Shown here piece after piece: positions 8,412 to 48,317 of a stretch of 49,367 bases of DNA. The first letter of the stretch is position 1; each line of letters begins with the position of its first letter. The translations under genes and the position numbers were made by a program. Under the pieces are notes generated by a model. That model was not told where the DNA came from. It saw only the letters and a program-made list of their open reading frames with translations, and did not search any database. Source of the DNA: Catajapyx aquilonaris (taxonomy: Eukaryota); the NCBI GenBank assembly GCA_000934665.2, contig JYFJ02000746.1:62001-111367 (forward strand), written 5' to 3'.

Positions 8412-9473
8412 TTACAATGGCTGTACGACCGGAATGGTGTTTGAACATCGCGAGACCTGCTGATAAGTGGCGACGTCGAAACTGACAGTCACTCCTGTGG
8501 CTCCAAACTGATTCTGAAAGTTCTCCGCAGTTTCTAAAGGATACCAACCCCAGCACGGATACACGTTCTGACCCACGTTGGATTCCTCGCCGAACTTCCG
8601 GAGGAGTGTCATGGTGCGTACCAGTGGAGGTGCGGAGTAAGCCTTGTCCGGTCTGACCAAAGTGGCGTTGAACGTGGCCAGAGGCTGACCTGACCTCCCT
8701 TGCTGGCGGAGACACAGGAAGAGGTTGATGTCGCCGTTGGAGTTGTCCAGTCGGATGTACCACAGCGAGTCGTCACCATTGGGGAAGTCCATCGAAATCG
8801 GCGACTGGCTGTCTGCCGGTATGCTGTCGAACGTCCAGGAAAATGAAATGGTGTCCTCCTCCTGGTAGAAGGTCTCGCACCATTCCAAGGAGTCGAACGG
8901 ATTCCTTCCAATTTGCTGGGGAGGACGAATCACGCAGGAGGACACGTTGGATGGCACCAAGGCCAGTCTGTCCACCTTGATCAGCAGATGCAGTATGTCA
9001 TGGGTCAGGTGCCCAAGGTTGACCTGTTCTCTCTTGGCAGCTCGTGGCCACCCCCAGAGCGCGTACGGGGTGAGGTTGACCACCGGACTCTGACCTTTCA
9101 GACTGCCCTTTGACCCTCCTCTCCGGAAGTTCTTGTCCAGGATTGCGTAGCTGAATCGGGCCAGCTCCTTCGTGCTGGCTGTAGACGCCAAGGTCACGTA
9201 CAATCCCATGGAGTCACGCAGGTCAGCCGAGTCACCAGGTGGGAATATGTGGATGAACCAGGTCGTGTCGGACAGCGGGTTCAGCGGAAAGTACGGCGAG
9301 TGTATCCGACGAGGTACGTCGTGACGTTCGGCTCTTCGGCTGAAGTTGTGGAGGCTCCAGCCGAACTGGAGGCTCTCAACTGACTCCAGGCACTGTCCTG
9401 GAGGAGGCCGAAACACGCCCAGGACATCTCCAGCCAGAAGGAAAACTACGGACACAACAGTGAGGACACCCAT
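8412..9473 (-). CDS. Predicted secreted tandem MATH-MATH protein, single coding exon, 353 aa, no BTB
   Basis: Leader MGVLTVVSVVFLLAGDVLG. MATH1 FGWSLHNFS..SPYFP..WFIHIFP..LYVTL..WGWP. MATH2 WCET..FSWTF..WYIRL..LFLCL..CWGW. Confidence 0.85.
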   Translation of the reverse strand: MGVLTVVSVVFLLAGDVLGVFRPPPGQCLESVESLQFGWSLHNFSRRAERHDVPRRIHSPYFPLNPLSDTTWFIHIFPPGDSADLRDSMGLYVTLASTASTKELARFSYAILDKNFRRGGSKGSLKGQSPVVNLTPYALWGWPRAAKREQVNLGHLTHDILHLLIKVDRLALVPSNVSSCVIRPPQQIGRNPFDSLEWCETFYQEEDTISFSWTFDSIPADSQSPISMDFPNGDDSLWYIRLDNSNGDINLFLCLRQQGRSGQPLATFNATLVRPDKAYSAPPLVRTMTLLRKFGEESNVGQNVYPCWGWYPLETAENFQNQFGATGVTVSFDVATYQQVSRCSNTIPVVQPL

Positions 9474-10124
9474 ACTATCGGACAGTTCTTCTGCAACTGG
9501 AGGATGAACTAGCAGGAACAGAGGGCAATGGATTTTTTTTTTCTGGGTAGGATCGGGTTGGATGACACCCGAAGTGGTTCTTCAAGATGTCACGCCCCTT
9601 AGTGCAGGGCAGGGACTATTTGATTAACCGGACTTGGTACAACAAGAGGACATTAGCTACCACACCAAGGAGTGCTAAGGATTGATGGCCATGGCTTATT
9701 GTGCTTGGGTTGCAATGACCGTGCGGAAATTCACTCTACACGGAATTGCAAATCCAACAGGTTGGAGCCTGCAAAAAAATGGCGAAAATAATGGAATGGA
9801 CTGCTCAGAATGTGTGCTGTACAATAGATAAGGGAGTGACCAAGGTTCGTGTACCTCAGCACCTTCCGAATGGTTAATTATTATTCTGCACGATACAACC
9901 AGTTTCCGCTTTTAAGAATCATCTCGCGTACATATATGTGGTGTCCGGGTTGGATAATTATTTTCAAAGGCGGCACCCCCACACTTCTTATTAGGTAGAA
10001 AAATACTTGACCATGCAACAAAAAGAATGCAGTTTTTCTCAACAAAAAGGGAAAAACTTGCTCGACTAGAAAATTACGAATGTCACATCTATTACCTAAG
10101 ATAATCTATGAAATTGCAATTTTT

Positions 10125-12675
10125 TTAAGGAATTCGAGATCTAACGAGAATCGCGAGGGTTGGCTGCTTCTTGTTGAGTCTCCGCCATTCTTTTGTGGTG
10201 CTGATGTCTCTCATGTTGTCTGCTGCGACCTGGACGGCCTTCTCTTTCAGTTGGAATGCCTCCAATGAGTCTGCCAGCTGCAGTAATTCCAGTACATTGT
10301 CCACTCGCACTTTTCCTAGCAATATATTTTCGCAAACGGCTTCCAATTCGGTCATACCATGCTTATGGGCCAAGGTGAAAATGTCGGATGTTAAGGCTAC
10401 TGAGCCTGATTGTTGAGCATTTCTCAGGTCAGCTACAACCTGCAAAATAAGTGCAACTGTTAACAATTATTCAACACTTGCAATAGTTAAGTAGACATGC
10501 CTTTCTTCGCCATGCAGTGTCCCCTTCGTTTTGCTGACTTGACCACAGGGCAGCCAGTATTTCCATTTCCTTATCTTCTCCCAATGGAGGATCGGGTGGA
10601 CCACTGAAACACATCATATAGAGGACTGGTTATCTTGACAGCTGCATAACTCATGAGTCTCACTCTTCATTTTCGTTGCTATAAAAAGGGTCACACTACT
10701 AAATAATCATGCCTTTTCTCGTGACCTTTCCTGCCCTCCTACCGAGTTGCCATAAAAAATGCGGAAATGATATGCGACTGATGAGGCCATCATTTGTATC
10801 ATAGCATTTGCCTGCTAGTGCAAACTGTAGTCTACTATAGTTAGCGGACTGGTTGCCAATTAATATGTAGGATTTGTTTAAAAAAAAATTGTGTACCTTT
10901 GGCAGGCTGAATCGGACGAATCTGTGGCGCATGAGACGGATTCCTGAAGCCTTTGAATGTGGGCGACGATCTTGAGCTCCTTGTTTTCCTGGTATCTCTT
11001 GTCTCTGAAGATGACGTGGAAAGGTGTGGCCACCCTCCCCCAGCAGTAGAGTTGGGAAGGGTTTGGACCTGGATTTTTGAAGTAGGTGACGGTGTCGATG
11101 ACGAAGGTCCAGGGAGGATCATCGTGGTGGTCCTCGTCTTTGAAGGACACAGACACGTTGAATAGTGCCAGCTCGTGCGGTCTGGGCGTCTTCTTTAAGC
11201 AGAGATGGACACTCAGGTACAGCTCGGGACTCAGCCTCTCTCTCAGGACCCGGACCTCCGTTTCCCACTCGGTGTCCGCCTCCGTGTGCTCCATCAGAGG
11301 GATGCTGAGCCGCTTCTTCCAGTACTGCACCTCCCAGACGTACCGGAGGATAGGGTCGATTGCCTGGTAGCTGGTGTCGCATCGGACTGGAGGGTGCTCC
11401 TCGTCCACAGATGCAGGAGATGATGGTGACGATGGAAGAGGAGGCGGACATGCGGGGGTGGCCGCACACTCGCTGGTCTCACGGTACCGCTTCACTTGGT
11501 ACGACAGGGTCAGGACGTCCCCTTCCGACACGTACTCCTTCACCAGCTCCTCTCGTCCGATTTCCAAGATCCGGCCAAAGCATTTGCTGGACATGGAAGG
11601 AAATAGTGGATCAGCTGCAAAGTTCATTGATACCTTCGTGTAAATATACATTGAATGGGTTGACATATGCTTGACCTTTTACGTAAAGCGCTGAAGATAA
11701 TGCCATCAATTGCGCATATCAACTTGAAGCGGATTTATTAATGATTGCATGGTGACAGAAAAATATGTTATTGAGATTTGCTTTCAAGCGTGTTCTCCAA
11801 ATCGTGTGACCAGGCGTCATATGTTTTCGTTGTTTTTGTGCCCATTTATATACGCTTATCGTTAACACAACTGACTCCTCTGTTTCGTTTGAACTATACA
11901 GTAAGTCCATTGACTGATGGGGGTCAATATTCTTCTTTGGACTTCCGACAACAACAAGACACACCTCCCAAAAACTGATTTTACATCCCACTGAGGAAAC
12001 CGAACCAGTTCCGGAACCGGCTTACTATCTGGTTGTTCAGAGTATTGCCGATCACATAATAATCTGCTGTGCTTGGCTCTAACAGAATTCAGCTTTGGTG
12101 ACACGAAATCACGCGGTAGTGGGCCGGTTCCGAAACGGGTTCGCTTTCTGTTATTCCACGTAAATTGAGTTTGGAACTAACCTGGTTGTAAATCGAAGCC
12201 CGTAACCTCCTTGCCTCGTGTACACTTGTCCAGTCCTCTCAAAGTCCTTGTGAAATATGGAGAGCTTGTAAGTGGCTGTCTCGTGGGAGGAATCCTCGTG
12301 GTAGGAGAGACATATGTAAAAGGCAGGCACGTCTCCCATGAATCGGGCTCTTCCACGAGGGTAGACAGCTACCTGCCACTTGGTTTTTGAGAGAGGGTCC
12401 ATTGGGAACAAAGGAGAGAGAATGACGCTGTCTTGCTCTTCAGGACGCACGCTGAAGTTGTGTATGCTCCACTGGAACCTGAATGTCTCCAGGGGATCCA
12501 GTCGGACCTCGCAGTCCTGCTCCACCACTGTGTCATCGTCGGTGTTGACCTCGTAGTCGGTCAGAACTGAGGAGGAACTTCTGGGTGTCGTGGTGATGGG
12601 CTCCTCCGCAACCAGAAGGGGCAACAGCAGCACACTGCACAGCAACAGGACTAAACATAGCTCCTTCCACTGCAT
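10125..12675 (-). CDS. Predicted secreted MATH-MATH protein with degenerate BTB and BACK
   Basis: Leader MQWKELCLVLLLCSVLLLPLLVA, then a Thr/Ser-rich spacer and MATH1 (FQWSIHNFS..SPLFP..WQVAVYPRG..FYICL). Exons: 12675 to about 12182 (donor uncertain), 11614-10897, optional 15-nt exon 10678-10664, 10603-10501, 10439-10125. The last exon, LAHKHGMTELEAVCENILLGKVRVDNVLELLQLAD..LKEKA, is the BTB C-terminus plus BACK. Confidence 0.75.
11996..12148. mobile_element. Small foldback/MITE-like element in an intron
   Basis: Imperfect inverted repeats of about 34 bp: gaaaccgaaccagttccggaaccggcttactatc and ggtagtgggccggttccgaaacgggttcgctttc. No TSD confirmed. Confidence 0.5.
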
Positions 12676-13246: not shown

Positions 13247-15169
13247 TCATGGTTGGTTCCCTTCCAGAGTTCTCCGTAATATTTGAATGAGCAGAGAAGG
13301 GCGGTCTGTGTCGCGCAAATTTGCAAAATCTTTTGTAGCAAACACCTGGTCGCGGTTGGCTAACAAAAATTCGAATGCTTTCTCCTTCAGCTCCATCGAA
13401 TTTGTTTCGTCCGCAGCCAGAAGAATCCTTATGGTGTCCTCCACCGTTATTTTGTCGAGCAAGATTTCCTCGCAGTCCTTTTTCAAGTCCTCCAATTGGT
13501 TCTTGTGAGCCAAGACTAACAGGTCGGACACTATGCCGACACTGTTAGGATTCTGCAGACAAAGTGATTTTTAAAAAATTGCATGCAAATTCACAGGTCT
13601 ATGCAATATTTCCCAACACGACTGATAATAATCTTACCGTGTCACCTCTGAATGCATAAGCTCCCATGGCATTTATTGATGCTTTCTTATCATCATCCAT
13701 TTCTTCGTCCTCGTTCAGGTTGTTCTTCAGAGTCGCATATAAAAAGAGGACATTTGGAGGGAAAGGATCTCCTCCAGTGGGGTTAAGGAACTCGGTGGGA
13801 ACGAGATTTGAAATATTGTTCACTATCAGAGTGTCTGGATTTTCATCCCTGTTAATAAACGCAAATTAGCAAGCATAAAAATAGGGCTGATGAAAGTATA
13901 TGTTAGCTTCTTACTTTGGAGGAGCGAGGCAGGTCTGAGTGAGGGATGGCAGGTCCTTGCAGCAAGGACTAACTTCTTTAATCCTTGTTACCTCTGTAGT
14001 GACTGTTAAGGAATCATCTCGAAGCAGACCTTCAATTTCTGAATACGAGAGTGCCCTTTCCCAACCCCAGCATGAACTGATAATGGAAGGGTTGTGCTCC
14101 TCCAGAGAATACCTCCCCATCTGAAATGCATCGCTTTAGTTAGTTGTCATGAAGCGACGTTTTACGTAGATTGCCATACCCAGTCAGGATTACGGAAGAC
14201 GCTGTTATTTGCAGTGTCGTTGGCCCAAACTGTTATCCTGATTTTAGTCAACACTTCACTGTCTTGCTCGAACGATTTCAGGCAAACCCAGAGTCCAGAA
14301 TATCTGTCACTTTCTCCGGACGTGTGCACCACCATTCTCATCCCTAAACCTGTCTCCCATTCGACAACCGGTACTTCCGATCCTTTAATCGTAGCAGAGA
14401 AAATCGTATTGTTCTCACTCCATTTCTGTGTGAAATTCTGGATATCCCAGGTGCTGCTCAGGGCTTCTACAGTTCGGTAGGTATCGCACCAATCGGTGAA
14501 GGTCTGAATATTGCTCACCTTTTGGTCGTAAAGTCCGTCTGGTGCACCAGCATATTCCGACTTGTCACTGACCTGAATCTCACTTGTAATGTGAATGGTG
14601 CCGTCGTCCCAGAGGTATTTGGACAGGGAGGACTTAGCAAGAAACTTCGAGTGTTTCTTACAGTGGCCATTTTTGTTCGGAAACTTTATCGGAGTCACTC
14701 GGACAGATGAACATTCCCTCGCAGAATTCATTATCCAGGGAAGTCCAGGTCCAGGACCGCCGAGGTCTATGACATAATTCTTGCCGCTGACACTGTGGAC
14801 ATTTCCTGTGGTGGAATAGTCGTTTGCCAGGACCCTGAAGTGGTACGTGGCCAGTTGGACATCTTTTTGCTTGGAATCGAGACACAAGGAGAGGGACACG
14901 TGGTCCTCGTTGCCGTCAGGTTCCAAACGAAGCAGCCATTTTGGAGTTGAAGAATCTGCGTCGATTGGGAAGAGTGGCGACGATATGCTCTGCCCTTTTT
15001 CGTCATCTGCTCGCATGCTGAAGTTGTGGATGGTCCAGCGGAAGAGAACAGTTTCTCTGGCTCTGGCTGGTTGGCCATTAGGGCAATCCGTACGACGGGC
15101 AGCCACACCTGATCCAAACAGCACCACTACTGAGGCTACGATTGCTACTATGCTGTGAGCACTAGCCAT
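13247..15169 (-). CDS. Family B copy 1: predicted secreted MATH-MATH-degenerate BTB-BACK protein
   Basis: Leader MASAHSIVAIVASVVVLFGSGVAA. Exons 15169-14180, 14120-13915, 13848-13638, 13552-13247 are in frame. Closely paralogous to the four copies to the right. Confidence 0.85.
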
Positions 15170-17727: not shown

Positions 17728-19622
17728 TTATGGCTGGTGCAATTCCAGCAGGGTTCTCCAGGATATCTGAGTGATCAGAGGAGGGTGTTCTGAGTCGGGC
17801 AAATTTTCAAAATCTTTTGTATCAAGCACCTGATCGCGGTTGGCTAACAAAAATTGGAAGGCCTTCTCCTTCAGCTCCGTCGAATTGGTTTCATCCGCAG
17901 CCTGCAGGATCCTTATGGTGTTCTCCACCGTGATTTTGTCGGACAGAATTTCTTCGCATACCTTTTTCAAGTCGTCCAGGTGGTTCTTGTAGGCCAGTAC
18001 TAGAAGGTCGGACACTATCCCGACACTATCAGGATTCTGCAAAAAAGACGCTTTAAAAATTGCGTCAAAATTCACACGTTTATACTGCACATGCAATATT
18101 TCCCAGCATATATTAGAAATAATCTCACCGTGTCACCTCTGAATGCGTATGATCCCGTGGCATTTATTGATACTTTATCATCTTCTATTTCTTCGTCCCC
18201 ATTATGAGTGTTATTTATAGTCGCATATAGAAAGAGGACATTTGGAGGGAAAGGCTCTGCTCCAGTGGGGTTAAGGAACTCGGTGGGAACTAGATTTGAA
18301 ATCTTGTTCACTATCAGAGTGTCTGTATCTTCCTCCCTGTTAATAAACGCAAATTAGCACTCATAGCATTATTGTATACAATGAGCTAATTACTTGGGTA
18401 TAGCAGGACATGTCTGAGTGATGGATGGCAAGTCCTTGGAGCAACTAGTAACTTCTCTAATCCTTGTTACCTCTGTAGTAACTGTGAAAGAATCTTCTCG
18501 AAGCAGGCCTTCAATTTTTGAATTAGAGAATACCCTTTCCCGACCCCAGCATGCAGCCACAATGGAAGGGTTGTGCTCCTCCAGCGAATATCTCACCACC
18601 TGAAATCATCGCTTTAGTTAGTTGTAATGAAGCGACGTTTTACGTAGATTGCCATACCCAGTCAGAATTACTGAAGACGCGGTTATTTTTAGTGTCGTTG
18701 GCCGAAACTGTTATCCTGACTTTAGCTAACACTTCGCCCTCTTGCTTGGACGATTTCAGGCAAACGTAGAGGCCAGCATATCTTTCACTTTCTCCTGACT
18801 CGTGTTTAACTATTCTCATCAGGAATTCTGTCTCCCATTCGACAAGAGGTGCTTCGGTTCCCTTAATCCGAGGTGAAACAGTCGTTTTGTTTTCATCAAA
18901 TTTCTGTGGGACATCTAGGATTTCCCAGGTGCTGCTCAGGACTTCCACAGTTTTGTATTCAGTGTCGCACCAATCGGTGTAGGCAAAAGGATTGCGCACA
19001 TTTTGGTCGAAAAATCCGTCTGGTGCACCGGCACATTCCGATTCGTTTCTGACCTGAATGTCACACAGAATGTTCAGGGTGACGTTGTCCCATAGGTAAT
19101 TGGCCAGGGAGGACCTCGGGAGGACCTCTGAGCGTCCCCAACAGAAACTACCTTCGTCCGGAAACTTTTTCGGAGTCTCGCTGCCAAATACAGAATTCAT
19201 TAATCTAGTTTGTGTAATGTACTCGTAGGTCTAATGTAAAAGAAGTTTATGACTCACCTGGTGACACTTCTGACATTTCCGGTGGTAGAGTAGTTGTTTG
19301 CCAGGACCCTGAAGTGGTAGTCGGCCAAGTGGACGTCTTTTTGGTTGGAATCGAGACACAAGTAGAGAGACACGTGGCAGCTGCCAGGTGTCAAACGTAC
19401 CACCCATTTTGGAGGGGAAGAATCTGCGTCGATCGGGAACAGTGGCGACGATATGTTATCATTGTCTCTCTCTGCTCTGATGCTGAAGTTGTGGATGGTC
19501 CAGCGGAAAAGAATTGTTTCTCCTACTTTGGCTAGTTGGCCATTAGGACAATCCGTAGGGGCAGCCAGGCTTGATCCGAACAGCAACACTACAGAGGCAA
19601 CTATTATGTAAAGACTAGCCAT
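17728..19622 (-). CDS. Family B copy 2: predicted secreted MATH-MATH-degenerate BTB-BACK protein
   Basis: Leader MASLYIIVASVVLLFGSSLA. Exons 19622-19258, 19180-18658, 18599-18394, 18336-18129, 18036-17728, all GT-AG and in frame. Confidence 0.87.
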
Positions 19623-21010: not shown

Positions 21011-21104
21011 AAAATTGTTTTAAAAGCTAAGGCCATGTTATCAGGAGTTGCGTCACGAGGGTTTATCATACCCGGCGGGTGAGATTGGCCAAGGAGGAAA
21101 ACTA

Positions 21105-23739: not shown

Positions 23740-23930
23740 GACTGGCCAGTGTAGACATTTCTGGTAGTATGGAGTAGTTTACTGAGTAGTTGTTTGCCAT
23801 GAAGTGGTATAGTGGGCCAGTTGGGCATCTTTTTGTTTGGACTCGAGACACAAGTAGAAGGCCAGGTGACCATAGCTGCCGGCAGGTGCCAATCAGAGAT
23901 TCCACATTGAAATGGAAGAATCTGCGTCTA
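23740..23930 (-). pseudogene. Family B exon-1 fragment, a duplicate of the 20790-21010 remnant
   Basis: Degenerate DADSS..KWNL....GHLAFYLCLESKQKDAQLA.YHF segment, followed by the family promoter block at 23940-24120. Confidence 0.7.
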
Positions 23931-32814: not shown

Positions 32815-32815
<1 letters not shown>

Positions 32816-35745: not shown

Positions 35746-36333
35746 TCAATGTTTTACAGGATCCAGAGAAAATGCAAGTTGTTCTGGCTTCTTGGGCATC
35801 TGGGCCAACCCACCATACAACTTCTGAGGGCAACTGGACGCCTCTTCGTACCTCTGGATGGACACAACCAAGTCTAGGGTGTCCGCAGGGAGGTATTTCT
35901 GGGTAGCCAATTCCCTGGAGATGAATGTGTTGTACCCCAAGCAAGGAGCGCTGACCTTAAACTTATGCGCTCTTGTGGAGGCTCCCGTGAATGTGCTGTT
36001 GTCTCCTATCAGGGTCAAATTGAACAGAGCGAAATCTTGACCCTCAGGGGCTGTCTTGAGGCAAAGGAAGATACCGATGTGATCTTCAGTCTCTGGGCTG
36101 GTACTAGTCGGGTAGAGAGACACGTACCATTTGATATTATCATCCTGGCTGTTCAACGACGGAGAATGAATTGGGTCTCCTGGAACTTCTCCTCGAAGGC
36201 TAAAATCCTTGACGCTCCAGCGATACTCGACCAGGTCCTTGGTCACCAGTTGGGTCACGCACCATTCTTCGGATTGAGAGCTCCAGCAGCCTCCGAACAG
36301 CAGGAGAAAGCAGAAGAATGTTTGAGAAGTCAT
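35746..36333 (-). CDS. Predicted secreted single-MATH protein (195 aa), paralogue of 34280-34885
   Basis: Leader MTSQTFFCFLLLFGGCWS, then EEWCVTQ..YRWSVKDFS..KWYVSLYP..IGIFLCL..PCLGYNTFI..ADTLDLVVSI. AATAAA (minus) lies near 35691. Confidence 0.88.
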   Translation of the reverse strand: MTSQTFFCFLLLFGGCWSSQSEEWCVTQLVTKDLVEYRWSVKDFSLRGEVPGDPIHSPSLNSQDDNIKWYVSLYPTSTSPETEDHIGIFLCLKTAPEGQDFALFNLTLIGDNSTFTGASTRAHKFKVSAPCLGYNTFISRELATQKYLPADTLDLVVSIQRYEEASSCPQKLYGGLAQMPKKPEQLAFSLDPVKH

Positions 36334-38846: not shown

Positions 38847-40222
38847 TTACAACTTTGATTTCTGTTTTTGTATGATTAGCTTAAATATCTCGTGAGCCAC
38901 TTGAGGAGAGCTGATCAGAAGGGTCTTCCATCCCTGAGTTCTGGTGACTTTCTCGTGATTTTGCAGGACGAATTTCCAAGCCGTTTTCTCCAGGGGATCC
39001 ATGTCGTAGAAATGGGAAATTGACAGGATCTGAGCAGCTGTTTGTATGTCCAGCCTTTCCTCCAGCAGTTCTTGAATCGCGGAGGCCATTCCAGTCACAT
39101 TGAATCGAGACGACAGCTCAAGAAGCTCCACAATGTTGTCTTCGGTTGCATCTGAAGGCTTCAAAACTCCGGAGTAGACGTAGTGCAAGAAAATGCGAAA
39201 GTTGTCCTCCTTTACTTCTTCCAGCACTCTCTTGTTGCCAGTACCACTCAATTCCCAAGCTGGAATCCGGCTCTCCAGGATAGCCCTATGAGCCTTGAAC
39301 GTCGTGTTTTCAACCTGAAATTAAAAATATAATAATTATGTAATTTAAAATTGCCTGGTAAGCATCCATATAGTTTGTGCTTACAATTATGTCGATATCG
39401 CTGAGAGATTGTGTCTGCAATGCCTTTTCCATCCTCTCTTGAGTGTTCTTGCATTCAGTCTTCATCACATAGTCCATACTAGGACCATCCTCGCAGTTGC
39501 TCATCTGGTAGTGATGCAATATGCTCGTCTCGATGGTGAGTGTGTTGTCAGAAGACACGTACTTCAACATCAGTTTCCTGTCTACAAACAGATTCCATCC
39601 GACGCATCCTCCAGTCAGCTTCTTTGGCCTTTTGGACCACCGGAAGTAGCGTGGAAGATAGATTCTTCCTCTTTCGACAACTGGAGGTGCAGGCAGGGTC
39701 ACGTTCAGTTCAACACTGTACGTCGCTTTGCTGCTTCCGGATGCTAAGCACAAGAACAAGCCAGTCGTGTTCGTCAGAGTTTCCTAAAGTTAGATTAATC
39801 CAAGTTATACATTGGGAGTAAACGGGCTAATTAGGTCATGAAGTCTCGTGAATAAATTGTAATGACTTACCTCTATGTGAAGATGCTTGGTGTCAGTTTC
39901 CGTGTCCTTTGCTTGCTGTCCAGAAAACGGTCGGAACAGAAGTTTCCAATGGAAATGGTAATTCGAAGTGGGACGAATTGGGAAGCTGGGAGATGCCAGC
40001 TGCTCGTTATGCATGGTCAGATTATGGATGACCCAAGTCATCTGCAGGTATCGTTCGTAAGGGGAGGTCCAACATTCTCCAATTTCGGAGGTAGACACTT
40101 CGGCGTCAATTTTCAGGATAAGACACGCCATCTGAAACCCACAACGTGTCCTGATGATAGCCACAGATTGTTGCACACACGGTACTTACCAATAGCAAGA
40201 CTCCAATATACCATAGTTTCAT
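38847..40222 (-). CDS. Predicted secreted MATH-BTB-BACK protein
   Basis: Exons 40222-40190, 40131-39871, 39783-39385, 39314-38847. The spliced leader peptide is MKLWYIGVLLL/MACLILKIDA. BTB segment LSDIDII/VENTTFKAHRAILESR..FLHYVYSG. Confidence 0.82.
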
Positions 40223-40448: not shown

Positions 40449-41892
40449 TCAAGATGCATCTTTTGCATAGAACAGGTCATCAACAACAGGAAGAACATGA
40501 TGGGTGTAGTTCCTGGCTCCCTTTTCCGTGAAAACATTTCCACCCCCTTTTCTAATCTCCCTAAGACGCTGCAACTCGTACAGCACCTCCCCAATAAAAG
40601 TCGGCTTCTTCTTCATCAGCATGTCCCATCCCTCAGAGGTCATGACCTGATCCGTGTTGTCCAGAACAAACAGCATGGCCAAGTCCTTTGCTTCTGTCGT
40701 GTTGGACATCTCCGCCACGTCCAATATGTGAGCCGCAGTGTCCACTCTCAGGCCTTCAATCAGCTTCTTCCGCAACTCAATCACCAGCTCAGTCACCTGC
40801 ATCACTTCTGCCAGACCAATCAGCTCTGCAGATATCTTCTCAACAGGTGGGAGGTGACCAGTGTACAAGTAAATCAGGAACTGCAAAATTAAATCAGGGT
40901 CAAAAAAAAGTACGCTGCATTTGACTGAATGGCGCATACCCTTCTGGCAGAGTCGGGCTTTGTCTTGACCAAATTGGCCTTGCCCTTTTTTAACAGACGT
41001 TCCAAAAGACCAGGTTGACGTGCTTGAAGAACCACTTTGTGGGTGGGAAGTCGCAGAGATCCAACCTGTTTGGACAAGGTTAAAAACTGGTTTAAAAAAA
41101 AACTAGAACAGGTGCACAGATTAACAATTAAATCAGACTTGAAATTGGCTGTCGGAGTAGAGGCCCTTCTTTAAGGCTGTTTCTAGTCGCCAACTGGTCC
41201 TCCTGCATTCCAAGCGGTGGATCTCTTCAGCAGCGTGCAGACACGATCGAGAGGGCATGACCTGGGTCACTTTCACCTCAATAAAGAGCATGAAAAATAG
41301 TTAGGTCTACACTGTTTTAGTGGTTTCCGGCAACAATACCTTGAAGTGCAGGCTGTCATCCTGTTTTAGATGGTCCCTGAAGAGCCTGGTACGTCCAACA
41401 AATGCGGGCCATCCGATGCACTCTCCTTTAGTGAAGTCGTGGTCACTGCTCATGGGTCGTACCAGGTCTGACCCTCGACCATTGGCCTCCAGAGTGATGT
41501 GAACCCTAGCCACCTGCTGGTTCGACGGTGCGTAGGACAAGCAGGTGAACACTGACAAGTAGTCCGGACCCGCTTCCACCGAACCCTAACAAATAACAGA
41601 GTTATAGCGCACACAACAATACACTGGAAAGAGTGCACCTTACTAATGGGAAGACCACAAGTCGCCATCGAGAAACAGCTGCGTTCAGGGAGAACTCTGG
41701 CGACTGTATGCTCTGTCCAACACCCTCAGCTCTGATGGTTAAGTTGCCAAGGACCCACGTGAATTCCAGGACACGCGGTGAATACTCGGTGACACACGGT
41801 ATCGCAGCCCATGAAGTTGTCTCCGTCAAAGACCGGCTGAAACCCAGCACAAACGCGAAAAGAAATGCACCAGAAAGAAGCATATTGGACAT
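40449..41892 (-). CDS. Predicted secreted MATH-BTB-BACK protein
   Basis: Leader MSNMLLSGAFLFAFVLGFSRS. Exons 41892-41644, 41585-41340, 41276-41139, 41065-40940, 40880-40449. BTB segment YSDSQFQ/VGSLRLPTHKVVLQAR..FLIYLYTG. Confidence 0.82.
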
Positions 41893-42056: not shown

Positions 42057-44094
42057 TCATTCCGAGTTGTTTGTCGGAGTGTCCGGTATGCCGGGCGTCA
42101 TCGTGGTGACGTCAGCTTTGTTGCTGAGGTCCACCATCCTCCGGAATGCTTCGGAGGCCAGATGCGGGGCTCCCTGGACCAGCACCTTCCATCCCTGGGT
42201 CTCCATCACGCCCTGGGTGTCCTCCAGCACCACGGCCCATGCTTTCTCCTTCAGGTCATCCAGATGGTGGGCATCGGCCACCTGCAGGACTCTGGCGGCG
42301 CTGTCCACATTCAGCGCCTCTTCCAATGTCCGGGTTGATTCCTCAAGCAATCCGGACACCTCAAACCGCTTGCAGAGATTCAGCAGACCAGACGTGATGT
42401 TGGACGCCTTTGGAACCGTTCCGCCGTACACATACCGAAGAAGCTGGAGCACATCTGAAGCGTCGGCGTCTGTCAGTGGCAAACCATGTCCTGACTTATT
42501 TGGGGACAGTTCCTTCAGCAGCTTTGGAATCCGGACGGACAGGATGGCCAGATGCACCCGGAACTGTCTGTCGCCCACACTGAAGGAGATATCGCTGACG
42601 TTCCGGGTGTCATCCTCCAGCTCCTCTTTCAGACGACGAGATGTCCACAGACACTCTTGCTGCTCGCCGTTCCTGTCAGAATATTCTTTTCCAGGGCTGG
42701 AACATACCTCAACGTCGTCCAGCACGTCGATGCTGGCCACAATCTGCACCGAAAACATAAATATTTAGTGGTTTTTCTAGTAATTTATGTAAATACAGTC
42801 AAACGTGGTGAGATTGTGCCAGTTGGGGTGAGATTGTGCCAGTGCATTTTTTTTGGACAACATTGCGCCCTACACCGAATTTTACTCATCGTTGCCAACT
42901 TTGGCCATCCCTCAGTGTAGTGAAACATCCCCACCAGTGTACGCCACTGTTGTCCAAAAATCCGCTGGCACAATCTCACCCCCAATTGACGGGTAATTTA
43001 AGAAAATTAAATCTTCCACTAAGATTTACTCAATGCATTTTGAACGTCATAACTATTAAGGTTTCATCAGTTGAAAGTTTGTAACCGGATCCAAAGGTCA
43101 CATGAATGGCAGAGTTACGAAGTTGATAGTACCGTAAAAGGTCACACAGCTGGTAATTTGCATTTTTTATGATAATCAGTTGAACTTTTCCTCCCTTAAA
43201 AGTACGTGAACTGTTCATGAACCTAGTCCAAACTCCAGATTTAAAGGTTGATCTTTCGTCATAATGTTTTAAATAAACTATTTTTCTCCCCTTGGAAATA
43301 GTTGATATGTCAAACCTTAAGGTGTCCCTGGTTGAGATGCTGAGAGATGACCTTCCTCCTGGGTAGAAACTCCTTCCAGCCCCTGCAGTTTCCTTGCCGG
43401 AACATGGATGGATTTGGCGAGAACTTGGAGGCCACTTTGGCTTTTGTGTTGTTGTAGTTTGGCAGGGCAGACAGAGTGAAAAGGACTCTCTGTGGGTATT
43501 CTTTGGCTCGGTTTAGGCACAGGTAGAGTCCTATCCATCTCTGATGAGGCTTTCCTTTGGAGCTGGGTCGACGTGTGTCCTCTGACCTCAGCTCATCGCA
43601 CCTGGCCAGACACATGTCAACCCAAGATGAACCCTTAGACATACTTCCCATGCACACATCCTGACACTGCTTCATCATCACAGGGCTGGAGAAACCATCT
43701 TCTTCCTACAACAATATGTCATGAGGTTCATGCAAAGTTTTCAAAAAGGTCAAACAACTTGCCTTCTTGTCCACTGCATCTTCAACAGCCAGAGAAGGAT
43801 AGAGGACAATCTGCCAGCTGGAAGGATTCTCGTGGTCGTGGAAGTTTGGTGACCTTATGCTCTCTGACCCCATCTCACCGCGCATTTGGAACTGTCCGAT
43901 TTCCCATAGAAAGTGTATCGGAGTCTTCTCAGTGCTTGTCACGCATTGCTCCTGGTCCAGATAGCTTCCAAACACAGGTGCAAGGAAGAGCAGAATCTGA
44001 CATATTTTGAATGAAAAAAATAATAATTCAGATGAAAAATTTTAGGTTTTGAACCTCACTGAAAATTTCGACTTACCCAACACGAGGACCACAT
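42057..44094 (-). CDS. Predicted secreted MATH-BTB-BACK protein with a Cys-rich insertion in MATH
   Basis: Exons 44094-44077, 43996-43763 (GC donor), 43705-43316, 42743-42057. Leader MWSSCW/ILLFLAPVFG. BTB segment VSDISFSVGDRQFRVHLAILSVR..LLRYVYGG. Confidence 0.82.
42796..42993. mobile_element. TA-flanked MITE in an intron
   Basis: Imperfect TIRs cagtcaaacgtggtgagattgtgccag and ctggcacaatctcacccccaattgacggg, with subterminal ttttggacaaca/tgttgtccaaaa inverted pair and TA on both sides. Confidence 0.7.
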
Positions 44095-44318: not shown

Positions 44319-46429
44319 TTAGCCCCTAATGGAATTTCCCCCTTTGGGTCTGCCCATCAGCCTCTGGAATACCAGAGATGCCAACTGCGGCTCCTCGTTC
44401 AACAGCTGCTTCCAGGATCTGGAGGCAAGGACCTCTTCGGCCCGGTTGTCCAGATAAGTCCAAACTGCCAGCTGCAAACGAGGCAGCACAAATCTGTTGG
44501 TCATGCTCAGGAGAATGGCCGCTGTGTCATCTTGGAGGTCCTCAACCAGCAGATCCTCCATGGTCACCACGTGGTTGTTCATGCGGTACTGGGTCGCAAG
44601 GGTCAGAAGGTCAGGGTCCAATTTCGACAGCGGAGGAATGGTGCCCGAGTACATGAACACTAGAAACTGATTACATTTAATTAGCGTAATGCTGACCACC
44701 TAGAAACTCTGCAAATACCGTACCTGCTGGATAGCCCTTATAGAGATAGAGCCGTTTAACACTTCGTCGATTTGTTGCGCGATCATAGATTCGTAAAATG
44801 AAGGACTTCGAGCCCAAACGATAGCTCTGTGCACAGGAAACTCGTGTCCGGACATCTGAAATAATTACCGTACATAACCATCATAGCAGTTTGCTGCAAT
44901 ACACTGAAGAGTGGAAAATGCCAAAGGCTCTATAAGTGCCAGAAAATTAGAAATTGCGATTCTGCGTGCAAAAGTGACCTGCCCAGTCTCGTGCAGGAGG
45001 TTCAAAGTGCAAAAAAAAATCCTTCAAGATTTTTGGCACTTTGAGCCTTTAAAATTTCCACTCTTCATTTATGCACTAGAAATGATGACTAACTTGGAGG
45101 CCATAGTCAGCAAACTCTCTGTTGATGACCAGTTCTTCCTCCAGCATTTTGGCTGTTGTCTCGCATTCCTGGTAACGCTCGTCTTTGTGCGTGTGTTCCG
45201 GTACAGATCCTGGACAGATGTTTCTCTCCTCTATTCTTTCCACCACGATTTGAACACCCAAAGCGCCATTTGTCAAATATTCCTTTAAAAAAATAGTATC
45301 TACAAATGGGTCTAAACACATGTTGTTGTGAGACTTACCCTTTCCAGCCTCACCCTGTCAATAAAGTTGGGCCACCCCCAACAATCGGATGAAGCAAAAG
45401 GAAACAATCGCAGCATGTTCTTCATCACGTTCTGCACTGAGCTTCCAAGGGTCGAGTACAGACTGACGTTGAACGTTGCCCTTTCGAGACGCACCTCTGA
45501 GTACTTCAGACAGACGAAGATACCAACATAGTCGCTCTGGGAGTCCTTCCTTCCCTATTCATCAAAACCCATTTAATTGTGTCAATCTGTGTCAATAAAA
45601 AATACTACAGGAGTAATTATCCTGCCAAGTTATTTCCCTTCATACAGTGGAGCTGGAAAAGTTGCATACTTGACAGGGGCGGGCGTCTAGCCACTTAAAA
45701 TTCGTTTAGAATTATTGTGCAATGTTACACAATCACAGATCGTTTAATTTAGGGGATTTACTTCTAGTAATTAATTGCAGTTAACTGATAAACTCCCGTC
45801 ATGACTCGAAGGATTGTTATAATATGATTTTTTTAAATGAGCACAACCGAGTGCGCAACACAGTTCGCGCAAATTGTTTCCAACATAGGGCCAACTTTTG
45901 CGATGTTGCCAAGGCTCTAGAATGAACAGTAGAGGCTACATGAGGAGTAACTGTGGCAACGTTGTTGTTGTTGCTCGAGTGTGGGTTGCGCTTGTTAAAA
46001 AAATCATCTATAGTTTAAGTAATTCAGGGCAATTTTACCAGTCGCCAGTACCTGTTGGTCATACTTCTCTCATTAACAAAAAGTTGTAACTGAAATATGC
46101 AATTAGAGCTTTCTAAGAAGCACTCTTGCATTGCAGTTTTGTTTTTTTGCTAATGACGACAGAGCAGACCAACTGATTGATTGCCATACCCTTGGGTACA
46201 AAATGACGTTCCAGCGTGTCTCTTGTCGTTTGTCGTAGAACGATGGTGAGTTGATGGCCTCTCCTCTGTCTTCAGGACGAAGAGTGTAGTTTTGGATCAC
46301 CCACTCGAAATGGATCTGGTTAGCCCTCAGCACAGTCTGGCACGACGGCACCTTCCCCCATTTGATGCTAGCCGGTACACCCACGAAAAACGACATCAAA
46401 AGCACCGAAAGAAGAAGACGACCTTCCAT
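44319..46429 (-). CDS. Predicted secreted MATH-BTB-BACK protein
   Basis: Leader MEGRLLLSVLLMSFFVGVPA. Exons 46429-46190, 45554-45339, 45282-45093, 44855-44724, 44666-44319. BTB segment FADYGLQ/MSGHEFPVHRAIVWARSP..FLVFMYSG. Confidence 0.82.
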
Positions 46430-46606
46430 CTCGATCAGAAGCCAACGAGCAAGTACATCGAATCAGGTGTGTGTGTGAGAGAGACAAAGGTGTCAGGAAG
46501 TGTTAGGTACGCAATGTAAACAACCCATTATCATTTAATTCCCCGAACCCATTGTGGGAATGTTTCTCTTTATTTGGAGCTTCTAGGAAATTCGCGTTTC
46601 TGCGAA

Positions 46607-48317
46607 TTACAGCTGGGATTTCACGATTTTGGCGAACATCTCTCCAACCACCTGGGGACGTGTCAGGACCAGGTTTTTCCAGTAAGGCGTGTCCAGCACC
46701 TCATGGGCGTGGGCCACCACAAACTTCATGGCCTTTGTCCTCAGCTCCTCTGCACCTGTCTCATCAGCCACCTGAAAAGCAGAACATCTACCTAAATGTC
46801 AAGAGCAATGGACAAACATATCCTGGCGCTATTATCAAAATTAGCTAGAAAAAACGCTCGCTTCGTGCGCATTTTTCTATGGAGAAACACTCGCTTCGCA
46901 CGTTAATGTTTTATTTTTCTCTAGCTTTCACCTTGATAGAGTGCTGATGCTTGTGTAGCGACAGGACATTGCATATACGAACCTGAAGAAGGTGGCCAGC
47001 ATTTTCCACAGTGATGGTGGGTATCAGTGCCTTTTCGCATGTACGCTTCAGGCCAGGTATGCCATACATGTGGGACAAAACCAACAGGTCAGGGGTCAGC
47101 TTGCCCAGTTTCTCGACATGACCCAAGTAAAGGTACAGGATCAGCTGAAAAAACCAATGTCTGATTAAGTATCTCTGAGGAAATCATCTACACTTTTGGC
47201 GCATCGTACCTGCTCTGCTACTTCGTCAGTCACGTTTGCTATGGTGTAAGTGTCACCTGAACCAATCTTTTCGATGGCCTCCCACAATCCAGGGCTTCGG
47301 GCGTACAAGATGACCTTATGAACAGGAAAAGTGCGGTTCCCTGCCTTGATCTTGAAGTCGCTGAAGTTGCCTGAATCCACCAGGTTGTCGAAGCCCATCA
47401 AGGGAATGTTGCATTCAGGCCAGTTGGTGTGAGGAGCCTTGTTGTCTCCCTGAATTAAATTTAAAAAAATATATATTTAGCATTTTAAAATGATGACGTC
47501 ACTGAAGCCATATTGAAGTGTGACGTCACTGTTTCATGACGAAATGAAAACTTGCCTTCAGACCAGTTCCAGAGAATAATTCAGGCAGAGTGGCGTTTGA
47601 GGAGCATTCTGTGACCTCCTTTGTCCTGCCCACCTCGACCTGCATGACCAGGGTGTCTTTTGGCAAGAAGTTCTTGATGAGCTCAGCCCTGCTGATGAAG
47701 TTGGCCCAACCCCAACATTCGCTGACACCCTTTTCCTGTCCTGAGAACTTGACCAGACGCTCCAGCTTCTTCTCGTATGACCTCTTGTTGGATGCTGTGA
47801 CTGTGGAGGACTCATCTTCAATTGGTCTTGATGGCAGGTTGACCATCACGGTGGCTCGCTCCTCAGGTCGGACAGTGTACCTTGAAAATGAACACACAGT
47901 CAGACACAACCTCAACAGGACCATCACACATACGTACTTGAGGCAGACAAAGATGCTGAGGAAGTCGTGTCTGGCGTCGGTGGATCCCTGAGGATACAGC
48001 TCGACCATCCAGGCGCTTTGGGAGGAGGCGTCGTGGAACACTGGGGACGTCATTCCTTCACCTTTGACCTCTCCTCTCATGGTGAAGTTGGTGAGGACCC
48101 AACGGAACCTGAAGGACTCTGGTTGCACCTTAGTTTCGCACCATGTCTTCTCCTCCGTTTCGTCCATGTTGGTGGCCGAGGTGGTGACGGTGTTGCTGGT
48201 GGCGCTTGTGGTGATGGTGGTGCTGTCACCGGTGCCACCGATGGTGCACTGGCTCTCTCGCCATTGGGTGGACAGCAGGAGGATGTTGAGAAGAATTGCC
48301 TTGACTACACTCGCCAT
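46607..48317 (-). CDS. Predicted secreted MATH-BTB-BACK protein with a Thr-rich N-terminal spacer
   Basis: Leader MASVVKAILLNILLLSTQWRESQC. Exons 48317-47938, 47880-47556 (GC donor), 47449-47210, 47144-46983, 46771-46607. BTB segment FSDFKIKAGNRTFPVHKVILYARSP..LILYLYLG. Confidence 0.83.

Follow-up and report, generated by a model that had tools for sequence, protein, structure and literature searches.

A tandem array of leader-bearing MATH genes suggests SPOP relatives turned into extracellular binding proteins

Fifteen consecutive minus-strand genes (g1-g15) fill positions 8412-48317 of the window, the 49,367-nt stretch of DNA analyzed here, and each encodes a SPOP-type MATH domain preceded by a hydrophobic leader without charged residues. 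The array genes are live and under purifying selection, as seen from dN/dS for g3-g7 and from RNA for g6-g10, and their sequences suggest SPOP relatives turned into extracellular binding proteins. An earlier note had read the array in this way, and its overall reading is partly supported. The literature searched describes no leader-bearing SPOP-like array; leader-bearing relatives, from a mealybug and from transcriptomes, are already present in databases.

Results

Organization of the array

Genes were counted by scanning the minus strand with a relaxed motif for the start of MATH, which placed the N-terminal MATH exons of g1 to g8 at 9365, 12477, 15043, 19508, 23459, 29552, 32325 and 34777, and those of g9 to g15 at 36225, 38349, 40041, 41763, 43912, 46309 and 48107. 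The scan also matched a neighboring gene at 6556, which was kept out of the array count; seven other rows (1120, 6457, 11111, 26798, 26811, 35099 and 40886) were dropped as second-domain or low-complexity matches. Together with a leader scan (15/15), it confirmed the claim of 15 consecutive same-strand genes with leader and MATH domain, and the ends first proposed for the array were exact, 8412 being the g1 stop and 48317 the g15 ATG.

5510..6670, minus strand: leaderless SPOP-like neighbor; MATH exon 6670-6101, BTB and short BACK exon 5959-5510; Pfam MATH_2 5.8e-20, BTB 6.2e-25
8412..9473, minus strand: g1, single exon, 353 aa, leader-MATH-MATH; open frame from ATG 9473 to stop 8412; Pfam MATH_2 5e-09
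10125..12675, minus strand: g2, divergent, group A-like (ORF homology; Pfam MATH_2 and BACK_BPM_SPOP/BACK); leader and MATH1 N-half 12154-12675, MATH1 C-half and MATH2 10881-11678, BACK 10128-10466; splicing approximate, spliced model (score 299) unreliable
13247..15169, minus strand: g3, 541 aa, leader-MATH1-MATH2, 70-aa module, BTB C-half/BACK, from spliced alignment to the RNA-supported g7 model; five exons, 15169-14785, 14697-14180, 14120-13915, 13848-13638, 13552-13247; intron 1 could be read through, as the frame stays open; Pfam MATH_2 1.6e-12, BACK_BPM_SPOP 33.7 bits (over cut-off)
16748-16861 and 23782-23892: further decayed copies (tblastn/blastp)
17728..19622, minus strand: g4, 536 aa, architecture as g3; exons 19622-19258, 19180-18658, 18599-18394, 18336-18129, 18036-17728
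19852..21011, minus strand: decayed copy of group A type, fragmented across three frames, no leader exon (tblastn with g7, blastp)
21686..23585, minus strand: g5, 537 aa, architecture as g3; exons 23585-23209, 23147-22628, 22563-22361, 22291-22084, 21991-21686
27775..29666, minus strand: g6, 532 aa, architecture as g3; exons 29666-29296, 29227-28705, 28627-28422, 28356-28152, 28068-27775; intron 29228-29295 bridged by an RNA contig
30553..32448, minus strand: g7, 544 aa; exons 32448-32069, 32008-31489, 31433-31228, 31154-30938, 30864-30553; 4/4 introns RNA-supported, joints refined to GT..AG, translation open
34223..34885, minus strand: g8, single exon, 201 aa, leader-MATH; Pfam MATH_2 6.7e-14; stop 34280-34282, AATAAA 34241-34236, poly(A) site 34223
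35746..36333, minus strand: g9, single exon, 195 aa, leader-MATH; Pfam MATH_2 5e-13; RNA contig over 35677-36333
36991..38484, minus strand: g10, 401 aa, leader-MATH-BTB-BACK; exons 38484-37964, 37770-37425, 37329-36991; intron 1 GC-AG, both introns bridged by an RNA contig, translation open; Pfam MATH_2 2.5e-18 and BTB
38847..40222, minus strand: g11, intron-split leader (exon 1 40222-40190, exon 2 40131-39871), MATH C-half about 39783-39385, BTB-BACK 39314-38847; approximate model with approximate inner splice sites; Pfam BTB 2.7e-11
40449..41892, minus strand: g12, leader and MATH N-half 41892-41644, MATH C-half 41585-41340, BTB and BACK about 41276-40449; approximate; Pfam MATH_2 partial, BACK_BPM_SPOP under cut-off
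42057..44094, minus strand: g13, intron-split leader (exon 1 44094-44077, exon 2 from 43996), MATH C-half 43540-43316, BTB-BACK as one exon within 42057-42764
44319..46429, minus strand: g14, leader and MATH N-half 46429-46190, MATH C-half 45554-45339, BTB about 44840-44724, BTB C-half/BACK 44666-44319; approximate
46607..48317, minus strand: g15, leader, stretch rich in Thr/Ser from a 27-nt repeat, MATH 48317-47541 (one probable intron), BTB 47449-46983, BACK 46771-46607; approximate

Three architectures were found. BTB and BACK are absent from g1 (leader-MATH-MATH) and from g8 and g9 (leader-MATH), whereas g10-g15 encode leader-MATH-BTB-BACK. The third, in g2-g7, consists of leader-MATH-MATH, a 70-aa module unrecognizable as BTB, and a BTB C-half/BACK, so that g1-g7 each carry two MATH domains. 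The BTB N-half of g3-g7 is unrecognizable: exon 4 of group A, tested as a BTB, gave an hhalign probability of 0.2%, and Pfam also finds no BTB there. Across the array, Pfam detected MATH_2/MATH, BTB and BACK_BPM_SPOP, and no protease domain. Pseudogene pieces and one transposon interrupt the array. Protein divergence between paralogs is 27-39% within group A and about 75% across groups, with a mean column identity of about 25%; composition is without structural-protein bias, and repeats are absent except for the short Thr/Ser repeat of g15.

Leaders and predicted topology

Leaders were called by a simple and crude rule-based scan (hydrophobicity and the -3/-1 rule) and are predicted. An uncharged h-region of 9-21 residues was present in 15/15 array genes versus 0/1 for the neighbor, whose N-terminus (ATG 6670) is acidic and has no h-region. 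In 13 of the 15 genes, the first in-frame Met past the upstream stop opens the leader, whose Kyte-Doolittle maximum over 10 residues is 2.43-3.60; in g11 and g13, the Met lies on a mini first exon with a GTAAGT donor (ATGs 40222 and 44094), and an in-frame stop precedes the g13 ATG by 24 nt. The first exons of g13 in one spliced model were rejected, because that model had skipped the leader. The leader Met is the first in-frame ATG in all 13 single-exon leaders, and one RNA contig runs unspliced through the g7 leader to 32483, 35 nt 5' of the ATG; both observations bear out the proposal that the leaders are N-terminal. The contigs cannot define the 5' ends of transcripts: those of g6 and g10 fail to reach the ATG by 29 and 50 nt, and that of g9 ends on it, so an upstream exon is possible for these three genes.

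A candidate cleavage site was found in 14/15 leaders by the simple -3/-1 rule, and these 14 have c-regions rich in Gly, Ser and Pro. When the N-termini were inspected by eye, subtracting the charge before the h-region from the charge behind it gave zero or a negative value in 13/15 genes, which points to an orientation that places the body in the lumen; in g3 and g14, the flank that follows the leader is positive. The uncharged stretch spans 18-21 residues in g2-g7, a length also compatible with an uncleaved signal anchor, and the h-cores of g9, g10 and g15 have just 9-12 residues. The nine well-modeled proteins agree with the earlier note that transmembrane segments are absent: they contain no second hydrophobic segment (KD19 maximum outside the leader <=1.21), and none of them has a KDEL/HDEL end or a GPI-like tail. 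In g15 and g2, the leader is succeeded by a stretch rich in Thr and Ser. Potential N-glycosylation sites are scarce, at 3-10 sequons per roughly 540 aa, which counts against a luminal or secreted protein; three sequon columns are common to the paralogs, and one of these is also present in SPOP.

Transcription and selection

Spliced, polyadenylated contigs cover g6-g10 and bridge seven canonical minus-strand introns; all expression evidence comes from one public RNA run of undeclared kind. The 3' end of g8 is marked by a contig with a poly(T) loose end, whose poly(A) site falls 13-18 nt past the AATAAA. The five close paralogs g3-g7 are intact (532-544 aa), with pairwise dN/dS of 0.26-0.58; by region, mean dN/dS was 0.21 in BACK, 0.54-0.56 in the MATH domains and 0.37 in the leader.

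Relationship to SPOP

Judged from sequence and fold searches, the array genes are SPOP-derived, as had been proposed. Matches in the PDB sequence search were SPOP in 19/19 cases, with no meprin or TRAF chain at E<=1, and the g13 BTB-BACK exon aligned with SPOP residues 197-356 (phmmer, E 2.6e-15). An AF2 model of g9 (mean pLDDT 85.2; block means of 89-98 across residues 31-160) was searched with Foldseek, and among the matches listed within ranks 1-50 all were SPOP MATH domains. For the AF2 model of the g13 BTB-BACK, all matches among those listed through rank 17 were SPOP; SPOP came nearest, then KBTBD and KLHL proteins. In a phylogenetic tree, one branch (SH-aLRT 76) had the 18 leader-bearing MATH domains of the array all on the same side, and the neighbor joined canonical SPOP. 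The neighbor gene is likely of the ancestral type and serves as an internal control. The sequence search gave no sign that the MATH domains group with meprins. A database search found no ortholog over 36% identity.

Cysteines, groove and CUL3-contact motif

At SPOP positions 89 and 130, 16 of the 19 MATH domains in the window have both cysteines and three have neither (g8, the first MATH of g1, and the neighbor), with none having one alone; because co-occurrence among paralogs is partly inherited, these are not 19 independent events. The second MATH of g1 carries the pair, as does g9, the sister of g8 (56% identical). Among 256 library domains, both cysteines occur in 6, one only in 34 and neither in 216. 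Flanking cysteines on both sides were found in 15/19 window domains versus 18/172 leaderless library domains; the neighbor lacks the C-side one, and MATH1 of g3 and MATH1 of g5 each miss one. In the g9 model, positions 89 and 130 fall on two strands (85-94 and 131-139) that are not known to be neighbors in a TRAF-type sheet, and this counts against a disulfide between them. The paired array-specific cysteines hint at a luminal or extracellular life.

At groove positions 87, 123 and 131, most domains carry an aromatic residue, the SPOP groove residues being those given in a review (PMC9690554). Invariant positions numbered 2/11 in the groove versus 50/129 in the rest of MATH (P=0.125), and 3/11 versus 56/133 in a second comparison (P=0.24); in both comparisons, the groove was not significantly more variable than the remaining MATH. 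The CUL3-contact motif phi-x-E, as described in PMC3616122, could be aligned in four BTBs, where it falls in a gapped loop; g10, g13 and g15 have another residue in place of its Glu, and g14 retains it as I-D-E. Loss of this Glu in 3/4 BTBs, and the lack of a recognizable BTB in group A exon 4, suggest that the CUL3 role is weakened. No basic NLS-like C-terminal tail was found in the nine well-modeled proteins.

Discussion

Comparison with known systems

The array proteins are most like SPOP/SPOPL (Roadkill, BPM; CUL3 adaptors), which have the closest MATH fold and sequence, the same domain order, mostly the same groove aromatics and, in group B, a BTB with a short SPOP-type BACK. They differ in having a signal-type leader where SPOP has an acidic or Ser/Pro-rich start, Cys in place of D130 along with extra cysteines, loss of the phi-x-E Glu in 3/4 alignable BTBs, and architectures with a double MATH and an unrecognizable BTB N-half (g3-g7) or without BTB/BACK (g1, g8, g9). 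They also lack a basic C-terminal tail like the SPOP NLS described in PMC9690554.

The best functional analog is LGALS3BP (90K/Mac-2 binding protein), characterized in PMC6026745 as a secreted BTB/POZ-IVR glycoprotein forming dimers, rings and chains outside the cell. Like the array proteins, it has a signal peptide and an N-terminal recognition domain followed by BTB/POZ and IVR/BACK, but its recognition domain is SRCR instead of MATH. LGALS3BP was absent among the Foldseek matches listed for the BTB-BACK model, and since the array BTB-BACK is nearest to SPOP, the array would represent an independent secretory recruitment of a BTB-BACK protein. BTBD17 is also secreted. Meprins alpha and beta also have a MATH domain, one active in the secretory pathway or extracellularly, but they are astacin metalloproteases with MAM, MATH and AM, and the array proteins have no protease domain. 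BPEPs (Brassicaceae PSV-embedded proteins), compared by description only from PMC3664471, have a signal peptide plus a tandem pair of MATH domains and reside in a secretory-pathway compartment. The same layout is seen in g1 and, for g2-g7, over the N-terminal two thirds, but BPEPs are plant-specific, vacuolar storage-associated and without BTB/BACK.

Lineage-specific MATH-BTB expansions that are large, fast-evolving and tandem have arisen from a SPOP-like ancestor in nematodes (BATH), rodents (TDPOZ) and grasses (BPM-like), and these are cytosolic CUL3 adaptors that are not known to carry leaders. Thomas (2006) reportedly proposed that such families track changing targets, for example pathogen proteins. 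Strongyloides and arachnid relatives in our library are leaderless, unlike the array. Among the best 150 library relatives, a hydrophobicity filter flagged 10, of which six were judged true leaders directly before MATH and one was ambiguous. Leader-bearing SPOP-like database proteins include Planococcus citri XP_065224717, XP_065222966 and XP_065205262 and transcriptome proteins P0043, P0050, P0099 and P0129. Like the array proteins, these have a hydrophobic leader directly before MATH and then (MATH-)BTB-BACK, but they are only 25-33% identical to window proteins; P0050 shares 33% identity with g10 in an alignment that starts at residue 8. Their records bear no annotation beyond 'speckle-type POZ protein-like'. 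Of 10 leader-bearing library domains, nine have neither Cys89 nor Cys130, one has one only and none has the pair. The leader-bearing library proteins fall in separate clades, mixed with leaderless proteins, and SPOP-like leaders were probably gained more than once. The literature searched, including an LGALS3BP-directed search, yielded no described leader-bearing or secreted SPOP-like MATH-BTB protein; the earlier statement that no secreted SPOP-type expansion had been described holds for the literature, but undescribed leader-bearing relatives already exist in databases.

A working model and its alternatives

We favor, as somewhat better than an even prospect, a lineage-specific family that expanded in tandem from a SPOP-type MATH-BTB-BACK gene once this had acquired an N-terminal ER signal sequence; the family would encode secreted multivalent binders. 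The leader would bring the nascent chain into the ER, most likely followed by cleavage, and the MATH domain would fold in an oxidizing compartment, where the family-specific cysteines (SPOP positions 89 and 130 and the domain flanks) may stabilize it. Export as soluble proteins would follow, retention as type II surface proteins being less likely. Separated from cytosolic CUL3, the proteins would have given up the ubiquitin-ligase adaptor role, and the SPOP-like aromatic MATH groove could bind short exposed motifs of extracellular targets. The conserved BTB/BACK tail, where present, would join subunits for multivalent binding, as in LGALS3BP with MATH replacing SRCR, and the MATH-only g1, g8 and g9 may serve either as competitors or as monovalent or bivalent binders. 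Duplication, coupled with rapid divergence of MATH, would create a repertoire, and this would fit recognition in immunity, mating or matrix.

Bulk proteins without a recognition role, whether secreted or vacuolar (such as storage, egg-coat, cuticle or adhesive material), would use MATH and BACK for packing only, as proposed for BPEPs: the leader and tandem MATH of g1-g7 match the layout given in PMC3664471, groove positions show no preferential diversification, and tandem amplification can serve dosage. We consider this unlikely, given that paralog divergence of 27-39% in group A and about 75% across groups exceeds what dosage copies need, that the aromatic groove residues are retained, and that composition shows no structural bias, the short g15 Thr/Ser repeat being the sole repeat. 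It is quite improbable that the proteins are effectors exported in saliva, venom or a parasite secretion that enter host or prey cells and hijack the host CUL3 ligase to destroy host proteins. Group B does keep a complete SPOP-like BTB-BACK, g14 keeps phi-x-E, viruses subvert CUL3 by means of BTB proteins, leader-bearing SPOP-like proteins are encoded by Planococcus citri (a sap-feeding mealybug), and named relatives come from parasitoid wasps and Strongyloides. However, the Glu is gone from 3/4 alignable BTBs, the BTB N-half is unrecognizable in the five best-conserved, expressed genes, and 3/15 genes are without any BTB; the extra paired cysteines suit extracellular life better than a reducing cytosol, the mealybug proteins lack the array cysteines and lie in a separate clade, and relatives of the transposon point to marine animals and to no known parasite.

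We likewise give little credence to membrane-tethered intracellular adaptors, in which an uncleaved leader would anchor MATH-BTB to the ER or a different organelle, facing the cytosol and still serving CUL3. The neutral or acidic flank in 13/15 genes favors translocation of the C-terminal body, and the Gly/Ser/Pro-rich c-regions, the small -3/-1 residues in 14/15, the 9-12-residue h-cores of g9, g10 and g15, the array-specific cysteines and the Glu loss all argue against such anchoring, even though the 18-21-residue stretch of g2-g7, the basic residues after it in g3 and g14, and the SPOP-like BTB-BACK of group B would suit it. An annotation artifact or a dying family, with untranslated hydrophobic starts and many pseudogene copies, is very improbable: despite the decayed copies (19852-21011, 16748-16861 and 23782-23892) and the approximate splice sites of g2 and g11-g15, a leader is present in 15/15 genes at about 25% mean column identity, the leader Met is the first in-frame ATG in 13/13 single-exon leaders, an in-frame stop lies 24 nt upstream of the g13 ATG, an RNA contig crosses the g7 leader, introns are canonical with a poly(A) signal, and dN/dS is 0.37 in the leader and 0.26-0.58 overall.

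If the favored explanation of secreted multivalent binders is true, an intracellular ubiquitin-ligase adaptor family would have been recruited into the secretory pathway, independently of LGALS3BP.

Array of leader-MATH genes

A motif scan with frame inspection located 15 N-terminal MATH exons in 8412-48317, all on the minus strand, in agreement with an earlier note that had placed 15 same-strand leader-MATH genes there (leader: an N-terminal hydrophobic signal-type stretch). We numbered the genes g1-g15 upward along the window and sorted them by layout from Pfam matches and a blastp comparison of every minus-strand frame with seed exons. BTB was absent from g1, g8 and g9.

Features of the array and its surroundings (window positions)
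6670 to 5510, minus strand: neighbour gene, MATH-BTB without a leader, just outside the array
9473 to 8412, minus strand: g1, 353 aa in a single open frame, with two MATH domains behind the leader
Minus strand: g2-g7 (group A), leader-MATH-MATH, then a 70-aa exon that is conserved, then a final exon carrying C-terminal BTB helices and a SPOP-type BACK
Minus strand: g8 and g9, single-exon leader-MATH, 201 and 195 aa
Minus strand: g10-g15 (group B), leader-MATH-BTB-BACK
19852-21011, 16748-16861 and 23782-23892, minus strand: decayed group A remnants, fragments in differing frames without a leader exon
24846-26428, minus strand: pair of open frames for a transposon-like protein, adjacent to each other (299 aa and 229 aa) and located between g5 and g6

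The decayed group A remnants lie between the genes, indicating birth-and-death turnover in the array. On the plus strand, a further BTB-encoding frame was found at 4584-4892 (Pfam BTB, 2.9e-10), which makes the region around the neighbour a BTB gene neighbourhood. Neither transposon-like frame had a Pfam match. The 299-aa frame had 118 relatives at E<=0.001, with up to 66% identity, some of them named 'Tesmin/TSO1-like CXC domain-containing protein'; the hosts were marine (sea spider, dog whelk, amphioxus, sea anemone, crab, fish and coral). Upstream of g7, an (AAT)22 microsatellite occupies 32811-32876.

Gene models and selection

The window has the marks of eukaryotic DNA: its genes are spliced, with introns of the GT-AG type that are 55-193 nt long, and a poly(A) signal, AATAAA, is present. 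Only one public sequencing run, X1, whose kind is undeclared, shared words with the window stretch. X1 contigs skip seven stretches with minus-strand ends GT..AG, once GC..AG, and one contig ends in poly(T) at 34223, 13-18 nt past AATAAA. These intron-type skips and the poly(T) end after AATAAA indicate that the X1 contigs represent processed RNA. The contigs yielded complete models for two genes, g7 with 544 aa and four introns and g10 with 401 aa and two, supported g6 intron 1, and covered g8 and g9; among the 10 genes in the stretch compared with X1, g11-g15 had no usable cover, which has no bearing on their expression. An RNA contig spans the first intron of g10 (37771-37963), whose ends are GC..AG, and GC donors may occur in the g13 and g3 models too. 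At 42807-42927 and 45829-45968, X1 contigs showed 90-95% likeness, several loose ends and odd joints (42851/42927 on opposite strands; 45871/45941 with non-canonical AA..CA ends); these contigs probably derive from paralogs elsewhere in the genome or are chimeric.

A custom spliced aligner reproduced g7, which then served as the template for g3-g6. Each of these four genes was modelled intact in five exons (532-541 aa), with canonical introns falling at matching positions. The models of g2 and g11-g15 came from distant templates and contained spurious micro-exons and one wrong first intron; their exon ranges are approximate only. Nine models (g1 and g3-g10) were taken as firm. Pairwise dN/dS (Nei-Gojobori) among g3-g7 was 0.26-0.58. 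By region, it was lowest in the last exon (mean 0.21) and highest in MATH (0.54-0.56), with 0.37 in the leader. This pattern indicates that g3-g7 are working genes.

Ancestry of the MATH, BTB and BACK domains

When the first exon of g3 was searched against all PDB chains by phmmer, each of the 19 matches at E<=1 was SPOP. Pfam MATH_2/MATH was found on the N-terminal exons, and the g13 BTB-BACK exon matched SPOP residues 197-356 (E 2.6e-15). In g10-g15, a BTB after MATH was recognized by Pfam BTB, by alignment to the SPOP BTB and by a fold match. The Pfam family BACK_BPM_SPOP (PF24570) scored 33.7 bits in g3, above the cut-off of 27.4, and 20.7-23.4 bits in g2, g12 and g13, below it. An AlphaFold2 model of g9 had a mean pLDDT of 85.2, with block means of 89-98 for residues 31-160, falling to about 52 in the leader; SPOP MATH was found in all Foldseek matches listed within ranks 1-50, with a TM score of about 0.85 and an rmsd of about 2 A for the predicted fold. 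The predicted BTB-BACK of g13 matched SPOP first, then KBTBD4, KBTBD2 and KLHL11 among the Foldseek matches listed, an order that separates the array BTB-BACK from the LGALS3BP/BTBD17 family and confines the resemblance to layout and a putative mode of action. Together, the PDB matches, the g13 BTB-BACK alignment and the fold matches support the SPOP ancestry proposed in the earlier note.

A profile of ten leader-MATH exons was searched against 1.84 billion representatives and returned 2248 proteins at E<=0.001. The best 150 of these 2248 were SPOP-like MATH(-BTB) proteins, none more than 36% identical to a window protein. The named relatives were arthropods and Strongyloides. Neither the first exon of g3 nor g9 had a match in word-indexed searches for homologs, and a profile of the BACK alignment found no relative in metagenome contigs. 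A quick maximum-likelihood tree of 68 MATH domains, built without meprin or TRAF sequences and containing several long branches, placed the 18 leader-bearing window domains on one side of a branch with an SH-aLRT of 76, and 17 of them at 87, which is modest support. The neighbour joined canonical SPOP in this tree.

Meprins carry a MATH domain in the secretory pathway. Pfam scans of the exons found no astacin protease or MAM domain, and the PDB search with the g3 first exon found no meprin chain at E<=1; both results argue against an extracellular MATH of the meprin type.

N-terminal leaders

The hydrophobic stretch opens with the first in-frame Met after an upstream stop in 13 genes. For g11 and g13, a mini exon (33 and 18 nt, respectively) that ends in GTAAGT carries the Met, and the hydrophobic stretch resumes in the next exon. 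Leaders were called by a rule-based scan of our own rather than by a trained predictor. All 15 genes showed an uncharged h-region of 9-21 residues, and 14 of them a candidate cleavage site with small residues at -3/-1, consistent with the hydrophobic leader ending in small residues that the earlier note had described. Neither feature was found in the neighbour by the same scan. A cleavable signal peptide sits at the true N-terminus and consists of an n-region, an h-region some 7-15 residues long and a polar c-region whose -3 and -1 residues are small; by the rule-based scan, the leaders are of this type. One g7 contig runs unspliced through the ATG and on for another 35 nt in the upstream direction; the contigs do not define 5' ends. 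At 48170-48225 in g15, a 27-nt tandem repeat (2.1 copies) encodes a Thr/Ser-rich stretch right behind the leader, a possible mucin-like linker.

In 13 of the 15 genes, as judged by eye, the segment following the h-region is neutral or acidic compared with the N-flank. Taken with the positive-inside rule, this suggests that the protein body is sent into the lumen. No second hydrophobic segment was present in the nine firm models (KD19 at most 1.21 outside the leader), in line with the earlier note, which had seen no transmembrane segment, and none of these models had a KDEL-like or GPI-like end. The uncharged stretches of g2-g7 are long (18-21 residues, c-region included), a length that would equally suit an uncleaved type II anchor.

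Paired cysteines and the MATH groove

We numbered MATH positions by a protein carrying the vertebrate SPOP sequence in our library, the set of relatives from the protein database profile search. The groove residues named in a review (PMC9690554) are mostly still aromatic in the array, and D130 is replaced by Cys in nearly every array domain. Cys at SPOP positions 89 and 130 was found at both positions in 16 window domains, at neither in three and at one alone in none; among 256 library domains, 6 had both, 34 had one and 216 had neither. The window counts come from paralogs and are not independent. Within the array, g8 lacks both cysteines and its sister g9 has both. A second Cys pair flanks MATH; of the 19 window domains scored, 15 have both members, as do 18 of 172 leaderless library domains. 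The C-side member is missing from the neighbour and from SPOP, and two domains break the flanking pattern. The paired gains fit disulfides, and would thus point to an oxidising compartment.

Few sequons for N-glycosylation were common to the paralogs, and variability at groove positions did not significantly exceed that of other MATH positions. One library protein, P0007 (Apolygus lucorum KAF6203297, 1721 aa, multi-MATH), has Cys at both 89 and 130 in several domains and holds five of the six library domains with this pair. Its N-terminus has no leader, and the model may be incomplete.

CUL3-contact features

The CUL3-contact motif phi-x-E lies in the BTB alpha3 region, according to a published account (PMC3616122). 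The corresponding site, in a gapped loop where the register is uncertain, reads L-D-G in g10, L-S-P in g13, I-G-S in g15 and I-D-E in g14; of these four genes, g14 alone retains the Glu in this alignment. M-x-E is kept in the cytosolic relatives P0021 and P0058. In g3-g7, the exon expected to hold the N-terminal half of BTB showed no BTB by hhalign (probability 0.2%) or Pfam. The exon 4 module of g3-g7 is conserved among the paralogs; a search of the ESM Atlas with this 72-aa module gave no usable match. A basic C-terminal tail was absent from the nine firm models. The N-terminal leader and the missing basic tail argue against cytosolic or nuclear residence and CUL3 binding, as far as sequence can speak to these. 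The array is SPOP-derived, yet it fails or leaves open several features that define a CUL3 adaptor.

Leader-bearing SPOP-like proteins in other animals

Among the best 150 library proteins, a hydrophobicity filter flagged 10, and six of these were judged to have true leaders directly before MATH, three from the mealybug Planococcus citri and three from transcriptomes. One more library protein has a leader after an internal Met.

Leader-type library proteins
P0015, P0068 and P0124: Planococcus citri
P0043, P0050, P0099 and P0129: others

Leader-bearing SPOP-like proteins are therefore not unique to this genome. Those in the library lack the cysteines of the array and fall in other clades, among leaderless proteins, suggesting that leaders were gained repeatedly. 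The Planococcus citri proteins are dense in N-x-S/T sequons. All leader-type library proteins are annotated only as 'speckle-type POZ protein-like'.

Discussion

SPOP-type MATH-BTB proteins are textbook intracellular adaptors. To our knowledge, CUL3 has been the sole frame for interpreting their biology, from cancer mutations and phase separation to the expansions in plants and nematodes. Full-text literature on MATH-BTB or speckle-type POZ proteins and secretion yielded no description of a secreted SPOP-type family, in agreement with the earlier note, which knew of no described expansion of this kind.

The sequence is best read as pointing to entry into the secretory pathway, and the array proteins are very likely targeted to the ER. 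That they are secreted, CUL3-independent, multivalent binders is a further step, which we consider reasonably probable. The earlier observation is confirmed, and the earlier interpretation is supported in part, as to SPOP ancestry and leaders; the export, assembly and ligand of the array proteins are inferences. Three rival readings each seem improbable. The leader could serve as a membrane tether with the protein body facing the cytosol, opposite to the lumenal orientation suggested by the leader flanks. Alternatively, the proteins could be effectors directed at a host, or could make up bulk secreted material.

In layout and likely mode of action, the closest known system is LGALS3BP, described in PMC6026745 as a glycoprotein that is secreted, combines a recognition domain with BTB/POZ and IVR, and forms rings and chains outside cells. 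Plant BPEPs, as portrayed in PMC3664471, have a signal peptide and two MATH domains and belong to the secretory pathway.

One may speculate that CUL3 adaptors were re-routed to secretion repeatedly in invertebrates, given the mealybug and transcriptome proteins, and that the array is a new class of extracellular receptor, in which a disulfide-stapled SPOP-type MATH domain on a self-assembling BTB/BACK scaffold provides diversified multivalent recognition, for example in humoral immunity or in gamete or self recognition; we hold this broader proposal tentatively. These results also draw attention to database records under the name 'speckle-type POZ protein-like' whose proteins probably do not act as ligase adaptors. 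If secretion and multivalent binding are true, both the peptide-binding groove of MATH and BTB/BACK as an assembly module would be reusable outside the cell, and the array would be a second, independent extracellular BTB-BACK oligomer beside LGALS3BP. It would also give invertebrate biology an extra candidate recognition family. The array bears on research into SPOP/CRL3, BTB assemblies and the recognition families of invertebrates.
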